DNA from: Fidelibacterota bacterium
GTDB taxonomy: Bacteria > Fidelibacterota > Marinisomatia > Marinisomatales > Marinisomataceae
Length of the DNA stretch: 64,000 nucleotides
Direction: 5' to 3'
Assembly: GCA_965212055.1 (NCBI GenBank)
Contig: OZ243041.1
Location: 883,736-947,735 of the forward strand
The translations under genes and the position numbers were made by a program. Position 1 is the stretch's first letter; each line of letters starts with the position of its first letter. A model generated the notes under the pieces. It searched no databases. It was not told the DNA's origin and saw only the letters and a list, made by a program, of their open reading frames with translations. Below, piece by piece: positions 1,535 to 48,341 of the stretch.

Positions 1535-2248
1535 TTAATTTTCAGATTCAGACTTATAAAGGAAACGCCCACAATTACTACAAAAAACCACCTGTTTTGC
1601 TAATGCTTCATTGACAAGTTGTGCGGGAACAAATGCGCCACACGCTTCACAATTATTATCAAGCACTGCAGAAAGTGCGATTCCATTTTTTGCCTCATAA
1701 ATAGTGTCATATTGAGATAATACATTCGAATCAATTCCTTTAACAATATTGGCACGTTCTATATCTAATGCATTCTTTTCTTCTGACACTTCTGCTAGCT
1801 TTGCCTCTAATGCTTTCTTCTTGGTATTTAAATCTTCAATCAATGTATCTAGATTAGTTTTATCTTCTTCGATTTCTTTAGATAATGTATCTTTGGTTTC
1901 CATTAATGTAAGAAGTTCAGTTTCTTTCTCACTAACAAGATTTTTTTCATAATCAATGGAATCCATCATGGCATCATATTCTTTATTCGTACTAATAGAA
2001 CCATCGGTAAGTCTATCTTTTAGTGTATTGACTTTTTCTTGAGCAGTAGCAATGAAAGTTTCTGAAGTTTGCATATCCACGATAGTTGTTTTGAGTGAAT
2101 TTTCTTTTTCTAAGAGGGAATTTTTAAGAGCCTCTTGTTGTTGAGTTAACTCTTCGACTTGTGTTGGAAGACCCCCTAGTAGTTTGTTGATTTCAAATAA
2201 TTTACTGTCAATATCATGCAATAAGATTATTTGATCAACAATAGACAT
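1535..2248 (-). CDS. coiled-coil protein with C-terminal C4 zinc ribbon (COG1579/DUF164-like)
   Basis: 237 aa, heptad-rich with E/K/L, ending in CEACGAFV...CSNCGRFL (four Cys). The architecture matches the COG1579 zinc-ribbon family. Confidence 0.7.
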   Translation of the reverse strand: MSIVDQIILLHDIDSKLFEINKLLGGLPTQVEELTQQQEALKNSLLEKENSLKTTIVDMQTSETFIATAQEKVNTLKDRLTDGSISTNKEYDAMMDSIDYEKNLVSEKETELLTLMETKDTLSKEIEEDKTNLDTLIEDLNTKKKALEAKLAEVSEEKNALDIERANIVKGIDSNVLSQYDTIYEAKNGIALSAVLDNNCEACGAFVPAQLVNEALAKQVVFCSNCGRFLYKSESEN

Positions 2249-13894: not shown

Positions 13895-16546
13895 TTATAA
13901 GTTACTCTTATCTATATTAACAACTAAATCACTTGCAATACAAGACCAATCGTAATCTTTTGCTATCTTACTTGATTGTTTTCCCATTTGTTTAATTAGA
14001 TCTTTATTATCAATCAAATTTTGTATAACACTTGTAAGTTCTCTATCGTTATTTCTTTCAAAGATAACACCATTAACCTGATCTTGTATACAATCTTTAG
14101 AACCAACATTATTAGAAACAATAACAGGTAATCCAGATGCCATAGCTTCTAAAACTACTAACCCAAATGATTCATGTATAGAAGGAAGAACAAAAAGTGA
14201 TGCTTGAGAATAATTTTGTAGTGGAGAACCAGATTCAACTAATACAGAAATACCTTTCTCCATTAATTTATCTTTATATTCATTAAATATATCTTCAAAA
14301 TATTGTGTTATATGACCATTAAATATAAGATTGATTTTATCAGAGGAGTTTATATTAAGCATTGCTTTGAGTAAAAGATGTACGCCTTTTTCCGGATTGA
14401 CATTCCCTACAAATAAAATATTAAACTCTTTATTATTTTTTCTCTTATCTAAACTATCATATTTTTGGAAATCTACACCTAGTGCGCAATTAATAAGTTT
14501 TTCTTTTTTTATATTATTAACTAAATAAGATTTTTCAACTAACGATGAAATACACCAAATTTTGTCTACTATTTTAATCTCTGCTAATTGTCTTTGTATT
14601 CTTTCAGCAAGTATGGGTTCATTTTTCAAACCTATTCTTTTATATTCTTTTTCTAAATAGTCTTTTTGTACATTTGGATGCATCCATTGAGAATGTAGAA
14701 TTGCTTTTCCACCACGTTTTTTCACTTCTTCAAATGAGTATAAAGACATTCCATTGCGTCCAATAATAATTGTATCACTATTAACTTCTATTATATTTTG
14801 TTGAATAAGATTTGTTAATTTTTTATCATAATAGATAAATTCGTCTAATAGTTGTTGATTAACACTGGTAGAAAATACTATTCTTTTAAATTTATTATAA
14901 CCTCTTATAGCAAATTCAAAAATCTTATTGGTACCAATATTATGATATTTACAAATTGATATATCAACTTCTCCCCTGCCAACCCATACAATATTATAAC
15001 CTAATTTTTTAAGATTTTTAACAAGCATAATGTCAGTACTTTTAGTTGCACCCAACAGATTAACATTATGTGAACCTGAATAAATGATAAAATTCATTTT
15101 CCTCTGATTTGAAGAATTGTTGGATAAAATATTAAGATTTGAAGAAGACTCAGAATTTTGATATTCATTTAAAATAATTTGAATATCTTTCAAATAAGTT
15201 ATATACAACATTATGAATAATACGATGAGCAATAATAGCTTATGAATCAAAGATAGTGTAAATAAATTGTTGGCTCCCCATAATAACAGACCCGTGAAGA
15301 AGAGTAGAAATAATATCTTTGTAAAATATGATAGATAACCTTTATGAATCAACTTCTTAACATAAACCTGGTAAGTGTAGAAAACTGATATATTCCCTAC
15401 TATAAAAACTGCAGCTGCAGCACCTGTAGTACCATATAAATCTGTTAAGAAATATAGCAAAGGTATTAATGCTAATAAATTTATTATTGCTACTTCCATA
15501 TCAACTTTTGTGTAACCATATGTATGTAATAATGGAGCAACATTGCTTGATACAGCTTTAATGAGTACAACCACAATAAATATTTGTAGTAAAAGTGATG
15601 ATGGGAGCCATTTTTCACCATATACAAAGAGTATAATTTCTTGAGAAAATAATAAAATTATAAATACTGGAATAAAATAAATAATTGCTGTTATTACCGT
15701 AATCATATCAAATAATTTAATTTGATCTTTAAGATTATCAAGCTTAGCAAGAGTTGGAAAAAGAACTTTATTAATGGCAGCTCGAATAAAAAATAAATAA
15801 TGACTGATTTGGAATGCCATCCAGTAAAATCCTAACGATTTTTCATCTATCAACAAATCCACAAGGTAATAATCAATATTGGTAGATATAAAAACAAGAA
15901 TTGTACTAATCAATAATGGATATCCAAAAACCATGGATTCTCTAAATATTTTATAATCTATACGGAGCTTGGGTCTATATGGCAAAATAAACCAGATTAA
16001 TACTGATTCTACAAGTGAAATAGTTACTTTCCACCACACTAAACTCCATATACCATAATTGTTATATGCCAATGTAATTCCAACAATGCCACCAACGACA
16101 TGAGATACCAACATTGGCATATTTGCTTTAACAAATGATAATTCTTTTTCAAAAAGTGCTTTTGGTTTCACAAGCGGGTTATACAACAATACTATGCAAA
16201 AGATTTGGATATATTCTGTAAGGTGAGATTTATCAATCCATGCTAAAATTGTTGGTAACAAGAAAAGAGAAAATAATATTAACAACAACCCCCATATTAA
16301 TTCAACGGTAAAAATTGTATCTAATATTTTATAAGGATTCTTTTTTTCTTTAATAAGAAATTTATCTCCATGAAGACTCCCAAAACTATTAAGAAACATC
16401 GCAACTAGGCTAATAAAAGCAAAAACACCAAATTCCGATGGCTCCAAAATTCTAGCAAGAGTAACTTGGACAGTAAAAAGTGTAATAACCTGCAATATGG
16501 TTATTACACTTACTGTGATTCCTCCAGAAATCAGTCTTTTTAACAC
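13895..16546 (-). CDS. fusion protein: Wzx-type polysaccharide flippase (MOP superfamily) + family 4 glycosyltransferase
   Basis: 883 aa in a single uninterrupted frame. Residues 1 to about 470 are polytopic (12 or more hydrophobic helices, typical Wzx). A Ser/Asn linker follows. Residues 484-883 (from the Met at 15097) are a GT-B domain with EKGVHLLLKAM and PSIHESFGLVVLEAMASGLPVIVSN. Confidence 0.75.
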   Translation of the reverse strand: MLKRLISGGITVSVITILQVITLFTVQVTLARILEPSEFGVFAFISLVAMFLNSFGSLHGDKFLIKEKKNPYKILDTIFTVELIWGLLLILFSLFLLPTILAWIDKSHLTEYIQIFCIVLLYNPLVKPKALFEKELSFVKANMPMLVSHVVGGIVGITLAYNNYGIWSLVWWKVTISLVESVLIWFILPYRPKLRIDYKIFRESMVFGYPLLISTILVFISTNIDYYLVDLLIDEKSLGFYWMAFQISHYLFFIRAAINKVLFPTLAKLDNLKDQIKLFDMITVITAIIYFIPVFIILLFSQEIILFVYGEKWLPSSLLLQIFIVVVLIKAVSSNVAPLLHTYGYTKVDMEVAIINLLALIPLLYFLTDLYGTTGAAAAVFIVGNISVFYTYQVYVKKLIHKGYLSYFTKILFLLFFTGLLLWGANNLFTLSLIHKLLLLIVLFIMLYITYLKDIQIILNEYQNSESSSNLNILSNNSSNQRKMNFIIYSGSHNVNLLGATKSTDIMLVKNLKKLGYNIVWVGRGEVDISICKYHNIGTNKIFEFAIRGYNKFKRIVFSTSVNQQLLDEFIYYDKKLTNLIQQNIIEVNSDTIIIGRNGMSLYSFEEVKKRGGKAILHSQWMHPNVQKDYLEKEYKRIGLKNEPILAERIQRQLAEIKIVDKIWCISSLVEKSYLVNNIKKEKLINCALGVDFQKYDSLDKRKNNKEFNILFVGNVNPEKGVHLLLKAMLNINSSDKINLIFNGHITQYFEDIFNEYKDKLMEKGISVLVESGSPLQNYSQASLFVLPSIHESFGLVVLEAMASGLPVIVSNNVGSKDCIQDQVNGVIFERNNDRELTSVIQNLIDNKDLIKQMGKQSSKIAKDYDWSCIASDLVVNIDKSNL

Positions 16547-41361: not shown

Positions 41362-41387
41362 GCCCTTCAGCAATGGAGGGCTTTTTT
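41362..41387. terminator. rho-independent terminator between convergent genes
   Basis: GCCCUUC-AGCAAU-GGAGGGC forms a 7-bp stem (one G-U pair) at 41362-41381, followed by a T6 run at 41382-41387 on the + strand. It lies 34 nt after the receptor stop and abuts the dnaG stop. Confidence 0.7.
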
Positions 41388-43125
41388 ATTGTAGTTGTTT
41401 CTGAAGATCAGTTAATTCTGTTACAAGAGAAATCTCAGGTGAGGAACCATCATCTTCAAGACGTCTTATTTTATCCCGTAATACTTGAATTTTCTGTTTA
41501 ATAGGTTCTTGTTCTAAGATTAAGACACAATCTTTTAAAATTTGATCCTGGCTTCCCTTTTCAGGTGAATGAATAGCAAAACTAGCGATTAAGTTTCGTT
41601 CTTCAGGAGTCCCTCCAGTTATTTCAAGTAATTGACTAATGGTATAATTTTTATCAATATTTTTGATAAGCGTTTTCATCACATTTTGTAATAAAGCATT
41701 GCTAAATAATTCAATTGCAATTTCTTTAATAAAGGTTGGATAATGTAATCCAAGTTTAATGAGTTCTAATTGTGCTTTATCTGATAGAGAAGTATAATGA
41801 GTTTCTTGTACTTTGCTTTTATCTCCAACCTCTGGACGATATATTTTTGTTTTAATTGATTTAAATCGATTCAGAATTTCTGTTTCAGGAATGGAAATCT
41901 CATTAGACAATTTCCTAATTAAATCATCTCTAATAATTGAGTCAGATACCATTTTAATTTCACCAAGACATTCATCAACAAAGAGGGATCGTTGTGTTGC
42001 ACTTTGTTTTAAAATTTCCTTTTGTTTTACAATAAATGCAATTGGGTGAAGAGAGGTTTTGATTAATTGTTTGAATTCTTTTTTACTGTTTTTTTCTTTT
42101 TGGAAAAAATCGTCTGGATCATAGTCATTACCAAAAAATAGTACACGCGTTTCTATGCCTTGTTGTAATAAAGCATAACTCGCACGTATAGCAGCATTAA
42201 CGCCTGCATCATCAGAATCATAAGCAAGAATAGCTCGACTAGTATGTTTTTTAAGTACAGCAGCATGTTTAGCGGAAAATGCAGTTCCTGATGTAGCAAT
42301 TGCATTAGAAAAACCATTCTCTACCAAACGAAGATAATCAGTTTGTCCTTCTACTAAAATTGCAAAATTTTGTTTTCGTATATTTGGCAATGTTTGGTAT
42401 GCCCCATAAAAAATTTTGCTTTTTTGAAATAAAAATGTCTCAGGTGAATTAAGATATTTAATATCATCATCTGGAGATAAAGTTCTACCACTAAAACCAA
42501 TTATTTTTCCTGAAAGATTAAAAAATGGAAACATTAATCTATTTCTGAACCGATCTACTAATCCTTTTTTAGATTCAGAAAATAAACCAGATTTCTTTAA
42601 AATATCTTCATCAAATTTCCCTTTAACTTCTTTAAATAAACTATCCCAACTATCAAGGGAAATTCCTAATCGATATTGTTTAATCGTAGCATCACTAAAC
42701 TGCCGTTTTTTCAGATATTTTTTACCGCTACTAGCTTTAGCAGATTTAATATTATTTTCAAAATAAATACATGCTAGTTCATGGATCTCATATAGCTGGT
42801 CATACAGATTATCTTGTTCTTTATCCCCAATTTCTATTATTTCAATTCCATATTTTTTAGCAAGCGATCGTACTGCCTCTGCAAAACCAATACGTTCATG
42901 TTCTATTAAGAATTGGATGGCATTTCCGCCTTGACCTGATCCGAAATCATACCACATATTTTTATCAGCAGCGACACTAAATGAAGGTTTTGTTTCTGAT
43001 CTAAAAGGACTTAAACCAAAATAGTTTTTCCCTCTTTTTTTGAGATCTACATATTGTGAAATCACCTCAAGAATATCTACTTCATCTAAAACTCTATTAA
43101 TGGTTTCTTGTGCAATTCTTCCCAT
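41386..43125 (-). CDS. dnaG: DNA primase
   Basis: 579 aa. N-terminal ZBD-like region (PFRSETKPSFSV...GGNAIQFL, but without Zn ligands), RNA polymerase core, and TOPRIM motifs VEGQTDYL and AYDSDDAG. Confidence 0.9.
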   Translation of the reverse strand: MGRIAQETINRVLDEVDILEVISQYVDLKKRGKNYFGLSPFRSETKPSFSVAADKNMWYDFGSGQGGNAIQFLIEHERIGFAEAVRSLAKKYGIEIIEIGDKEQDNLYDQLYEIHELACIYFENNIKSAKASSGKKYLKKRQFSDATIKQYRLGISLDSWDSLFKEVKGKFDEDILKKSGLFSESKKGLVDRFRNRLMFPFFNLSGKIIGFSGRTLSPDDDIKYLNSPETFLFQKSKIFYGAYQTLPNIRKQNFAILVEGQTDYLRLVENGFSNAIATSGTAFSAKHAAVLKKHTSRAILAYDSDDAGVNAAIRASYALLQQGIETRVLFFGNDYDPDDFFQKEKNSKKEFKQLIKTSLHPIAFIVKQKEILKQSATQRSLFVDECLGEIKMVSDSIIRDDLIRKLSNEISIPETEILNRFKSIKTKIYRPEVGDKSKVQETHYTSLSDKAQLELIKLGLHYPTFIKEIAIELFSNALLQNVMKTLIKNIDKNYTISQLLEITGGTPEERNLIASFAIHSPEKGSQDQILKDCVLILEQEPIKQKIQVLRDKIRRLEDDGSSPEISLVTELTDLQKQLQ

Positions 43126-43126
43126 A

Positions 43127-43606
43127 TTATGAAGGTATTGTTATTGATTGATTAATACAATCTTTCATAGGATTAAGTAAAGAAATGATTTTTGACTCTT
43201 CTGTAAGCATAGTATATATATTGTTTGATATATAATTATCAAAAAACCATAAAAAAACAACTAATAATAGTATTCCTTTTAATATGCCAAATAGAAACCC
43301 AAATAATTGATTCGCCACTGAAAAAATATTTGAATTTTCATAAAGAAATGATAAAACACTTGTTATAAACCGAACTCCCATAATAGTGATAATAAAAATA
43401 ATAATAGCAGAAAAAAATTGAGTTAGTTCCATATTGATATTAATAAAAGAGTGTAATTTTATAGTTAAATCTACATAAAAAGACATTGCTAGCCATATTG
43501 CAAGACCAATACCAATAAATTCTGAAATTTCATCTAAAAATCCTTTTTTACTTCCTGAAATACCAATAAATAAAATTAGAATTGAAAAAAGAATATCAAC
43601 AACCAT
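43127..43606 (-). CDS. cvpA: CvpA-family membrane protein
   Basis: 159 aa with four hydrophobic helices and an N-terminal VDILFSILILFIGISGSKKGFLDEI typical of colicin V production protein homologs. Confidence 0.65.
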   Translation of the reverse strand: MVVDILFSILILFIGISGSKKGFLDEISEFIGIGLAIWLAMSFYVDLTIKLHSFININMELTQFFSAIIIFIITIMGVRFITSVLSFLYENSNIFSVANQLFGFLFGILKGILLLVVFLWFFDNYISNNIYTMLTEESKIISLLNPMKDCINQSITIPS

Positions 43607-43612
43607 GGCTAT

Positions 43613-44050
43613 TTAAGATAATTTTGATTTTAAGATTGCTTGGGCCATACTACCATCAATCTTGCCTGCACCTTTTTTCATCACTTGAGGCATTACCTTT
43701 CCAAAATCTGCCATTGTAGTTGCACCAGTTTCTTTAATGATGGAGATGACGATTGTTGTGACTTCATTTTCATCCATCATTGATGGTAAATATTTCTCTA
43801 CAATATCAAGTTCGGCTTGTTCTTGTATCACCAAATCTTCTCTATCACCATCTTTATACATTTTAATAGATTCTTTGTGTTGTTTGGCTGTTTTTTGTAT
43901 TACTTGTAGAATTTGTTTATCATCCAATGAAGATCCAACTTCAATTACTTTATTTTTTAACTTCGAAATTAAGAGCCTTAGGGTATTAGCTTTTACTTTC
44001 TCTCCATTTTTGAGAGCAGTTTTCATATCATTTTGAATTTGGTCAAGCAT
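43613..44050 (-). CDS. yqeY: GatB/YqeY domain protein
   Basis: 145 aa. MKTALKNGEKVKANTLRLL... and a C-terminal G.ADFGKVM..VMKK..G..DG pattern. Confidence 0.8.
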   Translation of the reverse strand: MLDQIQNDMKTALKNGEKVKANTLRLLISKLKNKVIEVGSSLDDKQILQVIQKTAKQHKESIKMYKDGDREDLVIQEQAELDIVEKYLPSMMDENEVTTIVISIIKETGATTMADFGKVMPQVMKKGAGKIDGSMAQAILKSKLS

Positions 44051-44053
44051 ATG

Positions 44054-44797
44054 TTATTTCCCTTCATTTATACGTTTCATAGATAGTAATAATTTATCTC
44101 GATTGGATTCAAAACCAATAAATCTTCTTCCAGATTTTTTAGACACTAAACCAACGCTCCCAGAATTCATAAATGGATCAACCACCCAATTTAATTTAAA
44201 ACTACTAGATTTTAGTATTCTGTTAATCACTTCATAATAATCTAAGTGGAACCATAAATTGCTTTTTGAATCTTGGTTTTTTTCATCTTCTACAATCTTA
44301 CCATCTACTACATAATTTTGATTAAAAATATAATCGTTTGTTTTGGTAGCAAACCAGATATCAAATAGTTCATTTTCCCATTTGGATTGACTAGAATCAG
44401 AATTTTCATTGTTGCGTTCTATGGTAATACGCGATTGTACATGAAATTTTTTTGATAATAAGGAATGATACATACCAGAAGATTCCCAAGGACAAAAAAT
44501 ATAGATTGAACCAGTAGATTTTAGTACACGACTTGATTCTGTAAGCCAAACCTCCATCCAATCTAAATAATTTGTATAGGTTGGAGAATTTTTCTTTGTT
44601 TTTTCGTTTTTAGGCCCATTTGAAGGTTCTGTAATGATTAAATCAATTGATTCATTAGGCAGTTCAACAAGACCATCAATTGCATCTGATAGAAAAACTC
44701 CTTCAGACAATTTGTTTTTAAATCGCATATCTTCATTTGTTTTAATAGCAGGTAAATAGCGATCTAAGTCTTTTACTGTTAAAATATCAGAATGCAT
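44054..44797 (-). CDS. beta-class N6/N4 DNA-methyltransferase-like protein with degenerate catalytic motif
   Basis: 247 aa with PF01555-like order. SIDLIITEPSN sits where D-PP-Y is expected. RVLKSTGSIYIF, and C-terminal VVDPFMNSGSVGLVSKKSGRRFIGFE (AdoMet motif I region). Confidence 0.55.
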   Translation of the reverse strand: MHSDILTVKDLDRYLPAIKTNEDMRFKNKLSEGVFLSDAIDGLVELPNESIDLIITEPSNGPKNEKTKKNSPTYTNYLDWMEVWLTESSRVLKSTGSIYIFCPWESSGMYHSLLSKKFHVQSRITIERNNENSDSSQSKWENELFDIWFATKTNDYIFNQNYVVDGKIVEDEKNQDSKSNLWFHLDYYEVINRILKSSSFKLNWVVDPFMNSGSVGLVSKKSGRRFIGFESNRDKLLLSMKRINEGK

Positions 44798-45739: not shown

Positions 45740-46729
45740 TTATTTATCTTTAAAAAATTCCCAAATTAATTCAGAGCTATTTAAATCATCTCCCCAATCT
45801 TGGTGAAACCAAGTATGCCCTTCATATTCCATTTTATAGAGAACCACATCAGTATTGTCATCACAATTATAAGAAATAAATTGGGTAGATTGCAGGCCAT
45901 CATTGTTAAAATCTGGGACAGTTATTTGAGATTGATCCTGGCAATTATTGTTATTAGCCCAAAAATTATGTACAGTCTCTACTGGTACAGACCAAGAGGT
46001 ACCATTATAGGGAACAACAGTGTCAGCATTGCCATGAAAATGAATAATATTCTTCTTATTTGGTGGATTACAAGTATAGTATGCAGCATGTGAACCTGTA
46101 ACTGAGCCAATTCCATTAATTTCTTCAAGTTCACAAGCAAGTCTATAGCTCATAAACCCTCCTAATGACATCCCACATGAAAAAATTTTATCGGAATTAA
46201 TATTATAGTCTGTTTTAAAATAATCAATCAATGCTTTAAAAAATCCAACATCATCTACACCATCAAATGTACCAACTACATTAACATCCCAACCAGTGGT
46301 ACCAGTTAGATCTGTAGTCCCCTGCACATAAACTGCAATAAAATTTTCCTGGTCAGCAATTTGATCAAATCCTGAATAATTATGAATAACACTGGCACTA
46401 CTAGTATATCCATGAAGAACAAACAACAAAGGAATAGAATAGTTTGGATCAAAGTTTGGTGGTACATGCACGATAAAGGTACGTTGATGAGATCCCCAAG
46501 TCGTTGAAAATAACTTGGTTTGTTCATCTAATGGGTACATTAGTTGTACATCAAGTTCAGTAGTATCACTACCGCCATTACCACCGCTACCGCCATTACC
46601 ACCATTACCGCTACTATCAGAAGGGTCTACAAAACCAGTAGGTTTTGTGATCATACTGTCCTTACCAGAACAATTAATAAAAATAAAACATAATAGGATG
46701 ATGATTATGGATTTACGATTTAGTATCAT
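45740..46729 (-). CDS. secreted alpha/beta-hydrolase lipoprotein (esterase/PHB-depolymerase LpqC-like)
   Basis: 329 aa. Lipobox-like LLCFIFINCSG, a Gly/Asn/Ser linker (GNGGNGGSGGNGGS), PLLFVLHGYTSSA and the nucleophile elbow GMSLGG. Confidence 0.65.
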   Translation of the reverse strand: MILNRKSIIIILLCFIFINCSGKDSMITKPTGFVDPSDSSGNGGNGGSGGNGGSDTTELDVQLMYPLDEQTKLFSTTWGSHQRTFIVHVPPNFDPNYSIPLLFVLHGYTSSASVIHNYSGFDQIADQENFIAVYVQGTTDLTGTTGWDVNVVGTFDGVDDVGFFKALIDYFKTDYNINSDKIFSCGMSLGGFMSYRLACELEEINGIGSVTGSHAAYYTCNPPNKKNIIHFHGNADTVVPYNGTSWSVPVETVHNFWANNNNCQDQSQITVPDFNNDGLQSTQFISYNCDDNTDVVLYKMEYEGHTWFHQDWGDDLNSSELIWEFFKDK

Positions 46730-47315
46730 TAATAATTTTTTGTATTAGTTTTTCAATCTCAGATTCAAATTTAGCAAGAGAAGAATTATTTTCAATAATA
46801 TAATCTGCATATTCTCTTTTCTTTTCATCTGGCCATTGCAGTTTAATACGGTCTTGAATGGTGTCTAATGATAAATTTCCTCTAGCTAAAGCACGTTCAA
46901 TACGAACAGATTCAGGACTTGTAATTAGAATAAGAGGAACATTGGATTCATTATAATATTGATAAGAGCCACTTTCAATAATCAAAGCAGCATCAACAAC
47001 AAAGATAGGGTGTTGGTTTTCATCACGAATTTTTTCAATTCTTTTTAAGGTTTCTTTATTTACAGCTGGATGAATGATTTGATTCAATTTTTTTTGAGAC
47101 TCTTTATTGGCAAAAACTACTTTTGCTAATGATTCAAGAGTAATACTATCTAACGTAGGAAAAGCGTCTAAAACTATTTGTGATATTTCTTTAGTGAATA
47201 AGAGTTTCTTGGCTTCTTCATCTGCATCAAAAATATATGCATTATATTTCTTACAAACATTGGATGCTACACTTTTTCCAGAAGCAATCCCTCCCGTAAT
47301 ACTTATAACAATCAT
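46713..47315 (-). CDS. coaE: dephospho-CoA kinase
   Basis: 200 aa. ISITGGIASGKS P-loop, FDADEEAKKL and HPAV. Confidence 0.88.
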   Translation of the reverse strand: MIVISITGGIASGKSVASNVCKKYNAYIFDADEEAKKLLFTKEISQIVLDAFPTLDSITLESLAKVVFANKESQKKLNQIIHPAVNKETLKRIEKIRDENQHPIFVVDAALIIESGSYQYYNESNVPLILITSPESVRIERALARGNLSLDTIQDRIKLQWPDEKKREYADYIIENNSSLAKFESEIEKLIQKIINDTKS

Positions 47316-47866
47316 TATTGTATCTTTTCTAAAATACGATGGGTGACTTCTTCAATAGCTCCTTTACCATCAATGGTAAGAAGTTCATCTTGATAAAATT
47401 TAATTAATGGTGCAGTAAGTTTTGAATAAACTTTTTGACGATTGATGATTACCTCTTCCGTATCATCGGTTCTACCAGAGTTTTTTGCTCTATTGATTAA
47501 CCGATTAACTAAAATATCTTTATCAACATGAACATTAATAACATAATCAATTTGCAAATCAAGTTTATTAAAGATTGCTTCTAGTCCTTCGGCTTGAGGA
47601 ATCGTTCTAGGAAATCCATCTAAGACAATTCCTACTCCTTTTAAGGTAGTTAAAGTGTTTTCCATGATTGATAATAATACATCATCTGGTACAAGAAAAC
47701 CCTGATCCATATAACTTTTTGCTTTTAAACCAATATCGCTTTGATTATCAATTTCGTGACGCAACATATCTCCAGTCGATAAATGCATAAGGTTGTACTT
47801 TTCAGCTAAAATCTTAGCCTGGGTACCTTTCCCTGCTCCTGGTGGTCCCATAATAAGGAAGTTCAT
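47315..47866 (-). CDS. adk: adenylate kinase (short LID, no zinc knuckle)
   Basis: The start is taken at MNFLIMGPPGAGKGTQA (47866). LSTGDMLR and LDGFPRT. The upstream 18 codons of the tracked ORF are not AK-like. Confidence 0.92.
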   Translation of the reverse strand: MNFLIMGPPGAGKGTQAKILAEKYNLMHLSTGDMLRHEIDNQSDIGLKAKSYMDQGFLVPDDVLLSIMENTLTTLKGVGIVLDGFPRTIPQAEGLEAIFNKLDLQIDYVINVHVDKDILVNRLINRAKNSGRTDDTEEVIINRQKVYSKLTAPLIKFYQDELLTIDGKGAIEEVTHRILEKIQ

Positions 47867-47867
47867 A

Positions 47868-48341
47868 TTATTGTTGCATTGCCTTTGGTTTATCAAAAAT
47901 TGTGTGCATAATAATACCAAGCTTTAATGGATTATTAGAATATTTTTCTTGTAATATTTTTACTTTAGATTGCGCATGAAAAAAATCATACTTAGTTCGA
48001 GTATGCTTAATTCTTGATTGTAAAGTCCCTAAATGACGATCATCCACCTTGCTCATATCATGCATATCATCAAAATGTTCCTCAAAACTTGGTTCAATAT
48101 GATGCATAGATTGATCTTGAACCGGTTGAGGGATTTTAACTTCTTTTACTTCTGTTTCCATTTTTTCAAATGCATCATTGAGAAAATCTAACACACTTTT
48201 TGTTTGAGGTGGGGGAACATCAGGAATAGTGTCCTCTATTTCTTTTTCAATAGGGGGTGGAATTACTTTTTTCTTTCGACTTCTATATGCAGAAAAAAGA
48301 TAAAACGCTAAGATAACAAGCCAATAAAATAACTCTTCCAA
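47868..48341 (-). CDS. hypothetical single-pass membrane protein
   Basis: 157 aa. One N-terminal TM helix, then a Pro/Glu/Asp-rich region. It is the third gene after nfeD-floA. No family recognised. Confidence 0.4.
   Translation of the reverse strand: MEELFYWLVILAFYLFSAYRSRKKKVIPPPIEKEIEDTIPDVPPPQTKSVLDFLNDAFEKMETEVKEVKIPQPVQDQSMHHIEPSFEEHFDDMHDMSKVDDRHLGTLQSRIKHTRTKYDFFHAQSKVKILQEKYSNNPLKLGIIMHTIFDKPKAMQQ

Follow-up and report, generated by a model that had tools for sequence, protein, structure and literature searches.

The 64-kb stretch of contig OZ243041.1 analyzed here (hereafter the window), from a Fidelibacterota bacterium, encodes a DnaG primase in which all four residues that bind zinc in the CHC2 domain have been replaced. 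The positions that carry Cys, His, Cys and Cys (CHCC) in canonical primases read Ser39, Arg42, Asp60 and Ser63 (S-R-D-S). Our preferred reading, to which we assign a probability of about 0.72 as a whole, is that the open reading frame (ORF) at 41386..43125 encodes the housekeeping primase, DnaG, of a Candidatus Marinimicrobia (SAR406) lineage with low GC content, that its zinc-binding domain (ZBD) is metal-free and held by a Ser/Asp/Ser polar network and an Arg-Asp salt bridge, a mechanism that we infer, and that primase function is retained.

The identity of the gene is clear from several models. Its product scores 379.2 bits against TIGR01391, the NCBI equivalog model for DnaG (cutoff 283.6), over residues 3–409, and displays the complete Pfam architecture of DnaG: Zn_ribbon_DnaG (residues 5–96), DNAG_N, Toprim and DnaB_bind. 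PF01807 matches the ZBD over residues 5–96 with 99.4 bits, compared with a gathering score of 24.9. Pfam and a full-length AlphaFold2 (AF2) model both give the three-domain order of ZBD, RNA polymerase domain (RPD) with its TOPRIM fold, and helicase-binding domain. All of the motif classes of the DnaG TOPRIM and RPD (EGxxD, DxD, DPD, KYxNSPET and RFRxR) are present, and residues E259, D263, D303, D305, D336, D338, K223-YLNSPET (K223–T230) and R192/R196 are unchanged across zinc-less and CHCC relatives. The protein is a DnaG with a variant ZBD and, of the features tested, the CHC2 ligands are the one defining feature that it lacks.

Residues 33–73 of the protein read KNYFGLSPFRSETKPSFSVAADKNMWYDFGSGQGGNAIQFL. 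In HMMER, Ser39, Arg42, Asp60 and Ser63 occupy exactly the columns that hold the Cys, His, Cys and Cys of Aquifex aeolicus DnaG (2AU3), the alignment with E. coli MG1655 DnaG yields four identical correspondences, and the ligands of CHCC primases from other Marinimicrobia bear the same numbers, 39, 42, 60 and 63. An earlier note on this DNA had reported the replacement of all four ligands by Ser, Arg, Asp and Ser; the codons and these three alignments confirm it, and the E. coli N-terminus quoted there matches the MG1655 sequence exactly. Residues 1–100 contain no Cys and a single His (H76); therefore, no alternative set of ligands can be aligned, and a rival placement of Cys or His at the ligand positions, which the note had raised as a possible objection, is ruled out. 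The surrounding scaffold, described there as well conserved, is indeed kept at its non-ligand residues (G32, N34, P40, F41, E44, S48-F-S-V51, F61, G66, G67 and F72), and the ZBD is the most conserved domain of the protein. In the primases studied so far, trinucleotide specificity is set by two residues of strand β4, located at −3 and −2 from the third ligand (PMC2978363), which correspond here to Met57 and Trp58.

The replacement is a property of an entire clade. A set of 121 relatives was assembled from the 120 best homologs among 5.8 billion proteins and one further representative; all 121 read S-R-D-S, at 58–96% identity to the window protein, and they originate from many independent samples. 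The named members of this clade belong to Candidatus Marinimicrobia / Neomarinimicrobiota (SAR406). In a set of 14 clade members, no two of which share 90% identity or more, the mean pairwise identity was 0.86 for the ZBD, 0.73 for the N-terminal half of the RPD, 0.78 for TOPRIM and 0.54 for the C-terminal domain (CTD). Ratios of nonsynonymous to synonymous substitution rates (dN/dS) were calculated by the Nei-Gojobori method from the DNA of three relatives. In the comparison with the closest relative (dS 0.25), dN/dS was 0.075 over the gene as a whole and 0.024 in the ZBD; with a relative of 77% identity, it was 0.070 in the ZBD, 0.082 in the RPD and 0.249 in the CTD, and the ZBD values over the comparisons ranged from 0.02 to 0.08. 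Sequencing error and a pseudogene were considered and ruled out by the 121 cluster representatives with the same residues and intact ORFs and by the dN/dS of 0.075. By these sequence comparisons, dnaG is a constrained, working gene, neither an error nor a decaying copy.

An AF2 model of residues 1–105, built from an alignment of zinc-less ZBDs only, consists of five strands flanked by helices, with a predicted local distance difference test score (pLDDT) of 90.6 and a predicted template modeling score (pTM) of 0.81. When this model was compared with the PDB by Foldseek, the top match was 1d0q_A from G. stearothermophilus (TM 0.84/0.87, root-mean-square deviation 1.1 Å, 50% identity), followed by 2AU3. 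The full-length model (pLDDT 85.4) matches 2AU3 and crystal structures of the RPD (TM 0.8–0.86), and its C-terminal bundle matches in Foldseek the primase helicase-binding domain in 2r6a_C/2r6c_G (TMt 0.70–0.73), which is bound to DnaB in 2R6A/2R6C. The ZBD of the window DnaG is thus predicted by modeling to keep the canonical zinc-ribbon fold.

The gene order methylase-YqeY-CvpA-dnaG is common to the window, to the zinc-less loci L001, L002 and L087–L090, and to the CHCC loci L003–L005. This shared synteny and the identical residue numbers of the ligands indicate, at the level of sequence, that the zinc-less dnaG is the positional ortholog of the canonical dnaG of sister lineages, altered in place. 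The earlier note had allowed for a degenerate paralog accompanied by a second, canonical dnaG. The positional orthology speaks against such a paralog, and a tblastn search found no second dnaG within the 64-kb window, the scope to which this part of the answer extends. A scan of GTDB species genomes, with patterns biased to His or Arg at the second ligand and not exhaustive for paralogs, recovered at least five Marinimicrobia loci: at least two S-R-D-S single-cell genomes ('uncultured Candidatus Marinimicrobia', L001 and L002) and at least three CHCC relatives at 36–41% identity (L003–L005). In all Marinimicrobia loci examined, whether zinc-less or CHCC, an N6/N4 methyltransferase gene directly precedes YqeY-CvpA-dnaG. 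No adjoining restriction partner was seen, and the enzyme could be an orphan methylase kept near a replication gene.

An exhaustive HMMER search of 1.84 billion cluster representatives at 50% identity, of which the best 150 were classified, revealed a sharp gap around the clade: one representative at 59% identity also reads S-R-D-S, and all of the others are at most 40% identical. CHCC was found in 141 of the 150, the nearest of which align over their full length and, where named, are also Marinimicrobia. Against this background, S-R-D-S in all 121 clade members far exceeds what chance or error could produce. Six of the 150 constitute a second ligand-less group (patterns SKDT, STCT, SVDS, SKCT and SSDS), with named members from Flammeovirgaceae and Bacteroidia. 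A ZBD profile of these six matched 6660 proteins. The canonical ligands are missing from every one of the best 120, all of which (120/120) carry S-x-D-(S/T) or S-x-C-(S/T), and their commonest patterns are STDS (36), SSDS (30), SADS (12) and STCS (9). Named sources include Flavobacteriaceae, Flavobacterium sp., Owenweeksia, Cytophagia, Cyclobacteriaceae and Flavobacteriales, and zinc-less primases occur in metagenome-assembled genomes (MAGs) with names such as Flavobacterium sp., Owenweeksia sp., Parvicella sp., Crocinitomicaceae and Flammeovirgaceae. When one of the six ligand-less representatives was searched at full length, 119 relatives were obtained, 116 of them without CHCC and with S-x-D-(S/T) or S-x-C-(S/T) instead, and some on contigs longer than 1 Mb. 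In this second, ligand-less group the rule is Ser at position 1, any residue at position 2, Asp or a retained Cys at position 3, and Ser or Thr at position 4; S-x-C-S looks like an intermediate state. All Bacteroidales and Marinilabiliales loci retrieved were CHCC and the Flavobacteriales were mostly ligand-less; Algoriphagus and a Saprospiraceae MAG, however, were CHCC.

Viral contigs carry the same kind of domain. In IMG/VR, 39 of 60 parsed primase ORFs (340–790 aa; loci L093–L168) show the pattern S-x-(C/D)-(S/T), so the zinc-less ZBD is also spread among phages or mobile elements, whose hosts are presumably Bacteroidota. Databases annotate the zinc-less Bacteroidota and viral primases as 'DNA primase' or 'CHC2 zinc finger domain-containing protein'. 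A further sign of convergence is Trp at −2 from the third ligand, far commoner in the zinc-less forms of both phyla than in CHCC primases; it was found in 14 of 14 zinc-less Marinimicrobia cores, 38 of 123 zinc-less Bacteroidota sequences and 2 of 146 CHCC sequences (raw counts that ignore kinship), and could represent packing compensation, a change of initiation specificity, or both.

Several other sequences retrieved in these searches deserve mention. P0215 (CHCW) and P0223 (CLCC) each depart from the canonical ZBD at one ligand only, and may be rare partial-loss variants or sequence errors. P0139 (1358 aa) and P0140 (1240 aa) each contain three or four separate DnaG-like stretches in one polypeptide and may be tandem or fused primases. 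Many Bacteroidota ORFs of 100–170 aa (P0317, P0419, P0417, P0308 and others), on contigs of up to 2.17 Mb, comprise a ZBD only; these could result from frameshifts in long-read assemblies, or the primase genes could truly be split. DUF8430 (PF28534) is present in the C-terminal part of Bacteroidota primases (L081–L085) and absent from the Marinimicrobia protein.

The zinc-less ZBDs of Marinimicrobia and Bacteroidota most likely converged, as judged from trees and alignments. The origin was tested by neighbor-joining (NJ) trees with bootstrap on the RPD (308 columns), the CTD, the full-length protein, and the ZBD alone with the ligand columns removed (95 columns). The zinc-less Marinimicrobia clade was recovered in 50/50 bootstraps on the RPD and 30/30 on the full length, and its sisters in the NJ trees are the CHCC Marinimicrobia-type primases P0122, P0123, P0124 and P0129. 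We regard it as improbable that the zinc-less ZBD, or the whole gene, was acquired horizontally from Bacteroidota or their phages. Transfer would account for the same residue types at positions 1, 3 and 4 (S, D, S/T), for the Trp at −2 in both groups, and for the presence of zinc-less ZBDs on viral contigs, yet in the trees of the RPD, the CTD and the full length the clade falls with CHCC Marinimicrobia, an exclusive grouping with zinc-less Bacteroidota primases never appeared (0/50 on the RPD, 0/30 on the full length), and no viral locus has S-R-D-S. The ZBD-only tree, too short to decide, does join some Bacteroidota zinc-less sequence in 29/50 bootstraps (within a group of 25 tips or fewer); with the ligand columns excluded, however, the nearest ZBD is that of the CHCC Marinimicrobia primase P0123 (d = 0.61). 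Ser codons also match, with AGT at position 1 and TCN at position 4 in the window and in 2/3 Bacteroidota loci, a likeness in its favor on its face, but the codon families (AGY vs TCN) do not discriminate between the two origins. The C-terminal domain of the window DnaG can be aligned only with Marinimicrobia relatives, the methylase-YqeY-CvpA-dnaG synteny is Marinimicrobia-specific, and the flanking motifs differ, with ETKPSF and Y-D-F-G-S-G-Q in Marinimicrobia vs EKTPSF and K-D-F-S-S-G-K in Bacteroidota.

The proposed path to a metal-free domain is as follows. In an ancestor of the lineage, the substitutions C39S, H42R, C60D and C63S arose in place in the N-terminal zinc ribbon, and the domain most likely no longer needs a metal to fold. 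The two knuckles, S39-P-F-R42 and D60-F-G-S63, would be joined through side-chain hydrogen bonds, in which the Asp60 carboxylate may accept from the hydroxyls of Ser39 and Ser63 and from backbone NH groups of the knuckles, and a putative Arg42-Asp60 salt bridge would sit where Zn2+ was. Trp58 on β4 may contribute packing. The five-stranded sheet that reads the template trinucleotide would be kept, the ZBD could still recognize the template and pass single-stranded DNA to the intact TOPRIM center, and the C-terminal domain would still dock on DnaB. The occurrence of Ser, Asp/Cys and Ser/Thr in two independent lineages suggests a hydrogen-bond network tying the former knuckles together, and the metal-free reading is favored because Asp alone could ligate a cation and the neighboring invariant Arg argues against one. 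Binding of Zn2+ by this ZBD appears, from its residues, very unlikely. The 'structural replacement' suggested in the earlier note remains the best reading, in view of the ZBD identity of 0.86, its dN/dS of 0.024–0.08 and the fold match to 1D0Q.

Several considerations weigh against this reading. AF2 takes no account of metals, had 1D0Q and 2AU3 in its training set, and is prone to produce holo-like folds even for ligand mutants; therefore, a confident model is no proof of zinc-independent folding. Position 2 is not basic in most Bacteroidota sequences (T/S/A/V), which implies that the Arg-Asp salt bridge is not a general solution and that the shared part is the Ser/Asp(Cys)/Ser-Thr triad. In the primase of phage T7 and in the TWINKLE protein of metazoans, template-directed priming is lost together with ZBD cysteines (PMC7231222; references in PMC6163395). 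The function of the window DnaG must then rest on putative compensating changes.

Two other interpretations of the site compete with a functional metal-free ZBD. One holds that the gene is a degenerate or repurposed copy, similar to TWINKLE, and that priming depends on a second dnaG or on an archaeo-eukaryotic primase (AEP)-type enzyme encoded elsewhere in the genome. There are precedents, since TWINKLE lost three of the four ZBD cysteines plus its primase activity (PMC7231222) and dnaG duplications occur in various bacteria (PMC3290774). However, all TOPRIM and RPD catalytic residues are invariant here, the ZBD is the most constrained domain (dN/dS 0.024–0.08), the TIGR01391 score exceeds the equivalog cutoff, the gene occupies the same syntenic slot as the CHCC dnaG of sister lineages, the 64-kb window holds no second dnaG, and thousands of Bacteroidota primases are in the same state; among the loci listed (at least 80), none comes from the same assembly as either of the two zinc-less single-cell genomes, which is weak evidence. 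A TWINKLE-like inactive primase domain was accordingly rejected as a candidate, as the ligands are lost, yet the catalytic residues are intact and the ZBD remains under constraint, and we consider a degenerate copy highly improbable. We attach equally little weight to the idea that a metal, for instance Mg2+ or Ca2+, still occupies the site, coordinated by Asp60 together with Ser hydroxyls, water or residues of a second subunit. Metals are often bound by Asp, and of all the replacements in the two phyla the Asp (or Cys) at position 3 is conserved best, but the invariant Arg at position 2, being positively charged, would keep cations away, Ser coordinates metals poorly, and the domain has no Cys and only one, distant His.

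The reason for the loss of zinc is a separate question. The earlier note had suggested trace-metal scarcity or Cys economy, and the window does not support this. Economy of zinc or of cysteine (sulfur), with ligands lost through scarcity in the oligotrophic ocean, would suit a marine Marinimicrobia lineage of low GC content (30.1%) that is plentiful in ocean metagenomes, Tara samples and single-cell genomes among them, and whose adenylate kinase is of the short type without a zinc LID. Nevertheless, Cys makes up an ordinary 0.85% of residues in the window ORFs, the zinc enzymes RseP and M1 aminopeptidase are encoded there, and a 237-aa DUF164/CdsZ-type zinc-ribbon protein (1535..2248, − strand) keeps both of its CxxC pairs, at residues 200 and 223, indicating that zinc ribbons have not been lost generally in this organism. 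Moreover, sister Marinimicrobia retain CHCC, and primases of Flavobacteriales, Cytophagales and viruses have often lost the ligands too. Cells contain few copies of primase, and one zinc per molecule is a negligible saving. Economy is thus an unlikely explanation; the resistance of a thiol-free domain to oxidants, or neutral loss once other contacts had made the metal redundant, may account for the change instead.

Canonical DnaG ZBDs (PF01807; 1D0Q from G. stearothermophilus, 2AU3 from A. aeolicus) share with the window DnaG their family, length and domain order, with 50% identity to 1D0Q, and differ in carrying CHCC where it has S, R, D and S at all four positions. Reviews describe the ligands as highly conserved (PMC6163395, PMC8928506) and still treat the role of primase zinc in template recognition as unresolved (PMC6163395); according to one paper, the ZBD 'generally' contains them (PMC2978363). 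The Bacteroidota (Flavobacteriales/Cytophagales-type) and viral primases resemble the window DnaG in Ser at position 1, Asp at 3, Ser/Thr at 4 and a frequent Trp at −2, and they are likewise full-length with intact catalytic domains. Unlike the window DnaG, with its invariant Arg, they are variable at position 2; about one-third keep Cys at position 3, and they have the K-D-F-S-S-G-K flank, an unalignable C-terminal region (PF28534) and a separate place in the trees. Full-text literature searches and primase reviews yielded no description of a zinc-less or Cys-less DnaG in either Marinimicrobia or Bacteroidota. The zinc-less DnaG is genuine, shared by the whole clade and probably functional; it exemplifies a recurrent and apparently undescribed form of a familiar enzyme.

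Comparable losses are known from other proteins. The N-terminal domain of metazoan TWINKLE, a T7 gp4-like primase-helicase whose relation to the window protein was detected by Foldseek, has a DnaG/T7-type ZBD without cysteines (PMC7231222). TWINKLE has lost primase activity and priming is performed by POLRMT, whereas the window DnaG keeps its catalytic residues and has a ZBD under strong purifying selection. The LID of adenylate kinase is a Cys4-Zn site in many Gram-positives and a hydrogen-bond network of His, Ser, Asp and Thr in E. coli, and crystal structures demonstrate a metal-free state with fold and function retained. The parallel with the DnaG ZBD is that polar residues stand in for a small structural zinc knuckle pair, CxxC...CxxC, Asp taking position 3 and Thr/Ser position 4; the differences are that the LID belongs to another protein and fold and that the metal-free state of DnaG is a proposed one. 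C− and C+ forms of ribosomal proteins L31, L33, L36, S14 and S18 were reportedly described by Makarova et al. in 2001, and the C− forms usually coexist with a C+ paralog under Zur control. The window dnaG, in contrast, is a single positional ortholog, and no second copy that would form such a Zur-type C−/C+ pair was seen in the window or in related loci. Cys-less derivatives of zinc ribbons with the fold retained are also reportedly described, in PMC9369019, for the C-terminal repeats of topoisomerase IA (Topo_C_Rpt vs Topo_C_ZnRpt); these repeats and the C− ribosomal proteins resemble the DnaG ZBD in the recurrent, lineage-specific disruption of ligands within a retained fold.

Table 1. Coordinates in the window of dnaG, its domains and key codons, and the genes upstream of it
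Feature	Coordinates	Strand	Basis or remarks
dnaG, DNA primase, 579 aa + stop codon	41386..43125	−	TIGR01391, Pfam, full-length AF2 model
N-terminal zinc-ribbon-type domain (ZBD), residues 1–100	42826..43125	−	PF01807, AF2, Foldseek
RNA polymerase domain (RPD), residues 111–420	41866..42795	−	Catalytic motifs intact
TOPRIM within RPD, residues 251–345	42091..42375	−	Catalytic motifs intact
C-terminal helical helicase-binding domain, residues 445–579	41389..41793	−	Weak Pfam DnaG_DnaB_bind match, helical AF2 model, Foldseek
Flagged segment, residues 38–67: two former zinc knuckles and strands between	42925..43014	−	Alignments
Ser39 (AGT), at ligand Cys 1	43009..43011	−	121/121 in clade; also Ser in Bacteroidota zinc-less forms
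Arg42 (AGA), at ligand His 2	43000..43002	−	121/121 in clade; T/S/A/V/K/N in Bacteroidota zinc-less forms
Asp60 (GAT), at ligand Cys 3	42946..42948	−	121/121 in clade; Asp or retained Cys in Bacteroidota zinc-less forms
Ser63 (TCA), at ligand Cys 4	42937..42939	−	121/121 in clade; Ser/Thr in Bacteroidota zinc-less forms
Met57-Trp58, β4 residues at −3/−2 from ligand 3	42952..42957	−	Role per PMC2978363
CvpA-like, upstream of dnaG	43127..43606	−	Pfam
YqeY, upstream of dnaG	43613..44050	−	Pfam
N6/N4 DNA methylase, upstream of dnaG	44054..44797	−	Pfam

Three further genes of the window, all on the − strand, are of interest in their own right. The adenylate kinase (47315..47920) matches Pfam ADK only, with no match to ADK_lid, and thus has the short LID that lacks a zinc site. 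Read from its TTG start it runs into the upstream ORF 47868..48341; translation probably begins instead at the ATG of residue 19 (MNFLIMGPPGAGKG). An 883-aa ORF (13895..16546) is an apparent fusion of a MOP/Wzx-type flippase (residues 4–450) and a GT4 glycosyltransferase (residues ~650–875), located inside a long polysaccharide-biosynthesis cluster at ~4.8–38.4 kb. An esterase-like lipoprotein (45740..46729) has the low-complexity linker SSGNGGNGGSGGNGGS after its signal/lipobox region, and a paralog-like copy of it is found close by in L001 and L002.

In textbooks and reviews the Cys3His zinc site counts as a defining mark of bacterial primases, and natural, ligand-free essential primases in two phyla and in phages would allow the part played by the zinc to be studied directly by experiment. 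It is possible, and we advance this tentatively as somewhat short of an even chance, that a metal-free DNA-recognition domain of primase was invented at least twice, in SAR406/Marinimicrobia and in Flavobacteriales/Cytophagales-type Bacteroidota and their phages, with the same Ser-x-Asp-Ser/Thr solution and often a Trp on the specificity strand. If so, zinc would be dispensable for template recognition by DnaG-type primases, and the natural variants may differ in initiation trinucleotide preference or resist oxidants better. The questions that this opens are the need of the ZBD for a metal, the second-shell changes that compensate for its loss, and shifts in initiation specificity or oxidant sensitivity. 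In practice, the finding bears on the 'CHC2 zinc finger' labels used in annotation, on the prediction of zinc proteomes, and on ZBD-directed antibacterials against Bacteroidota.

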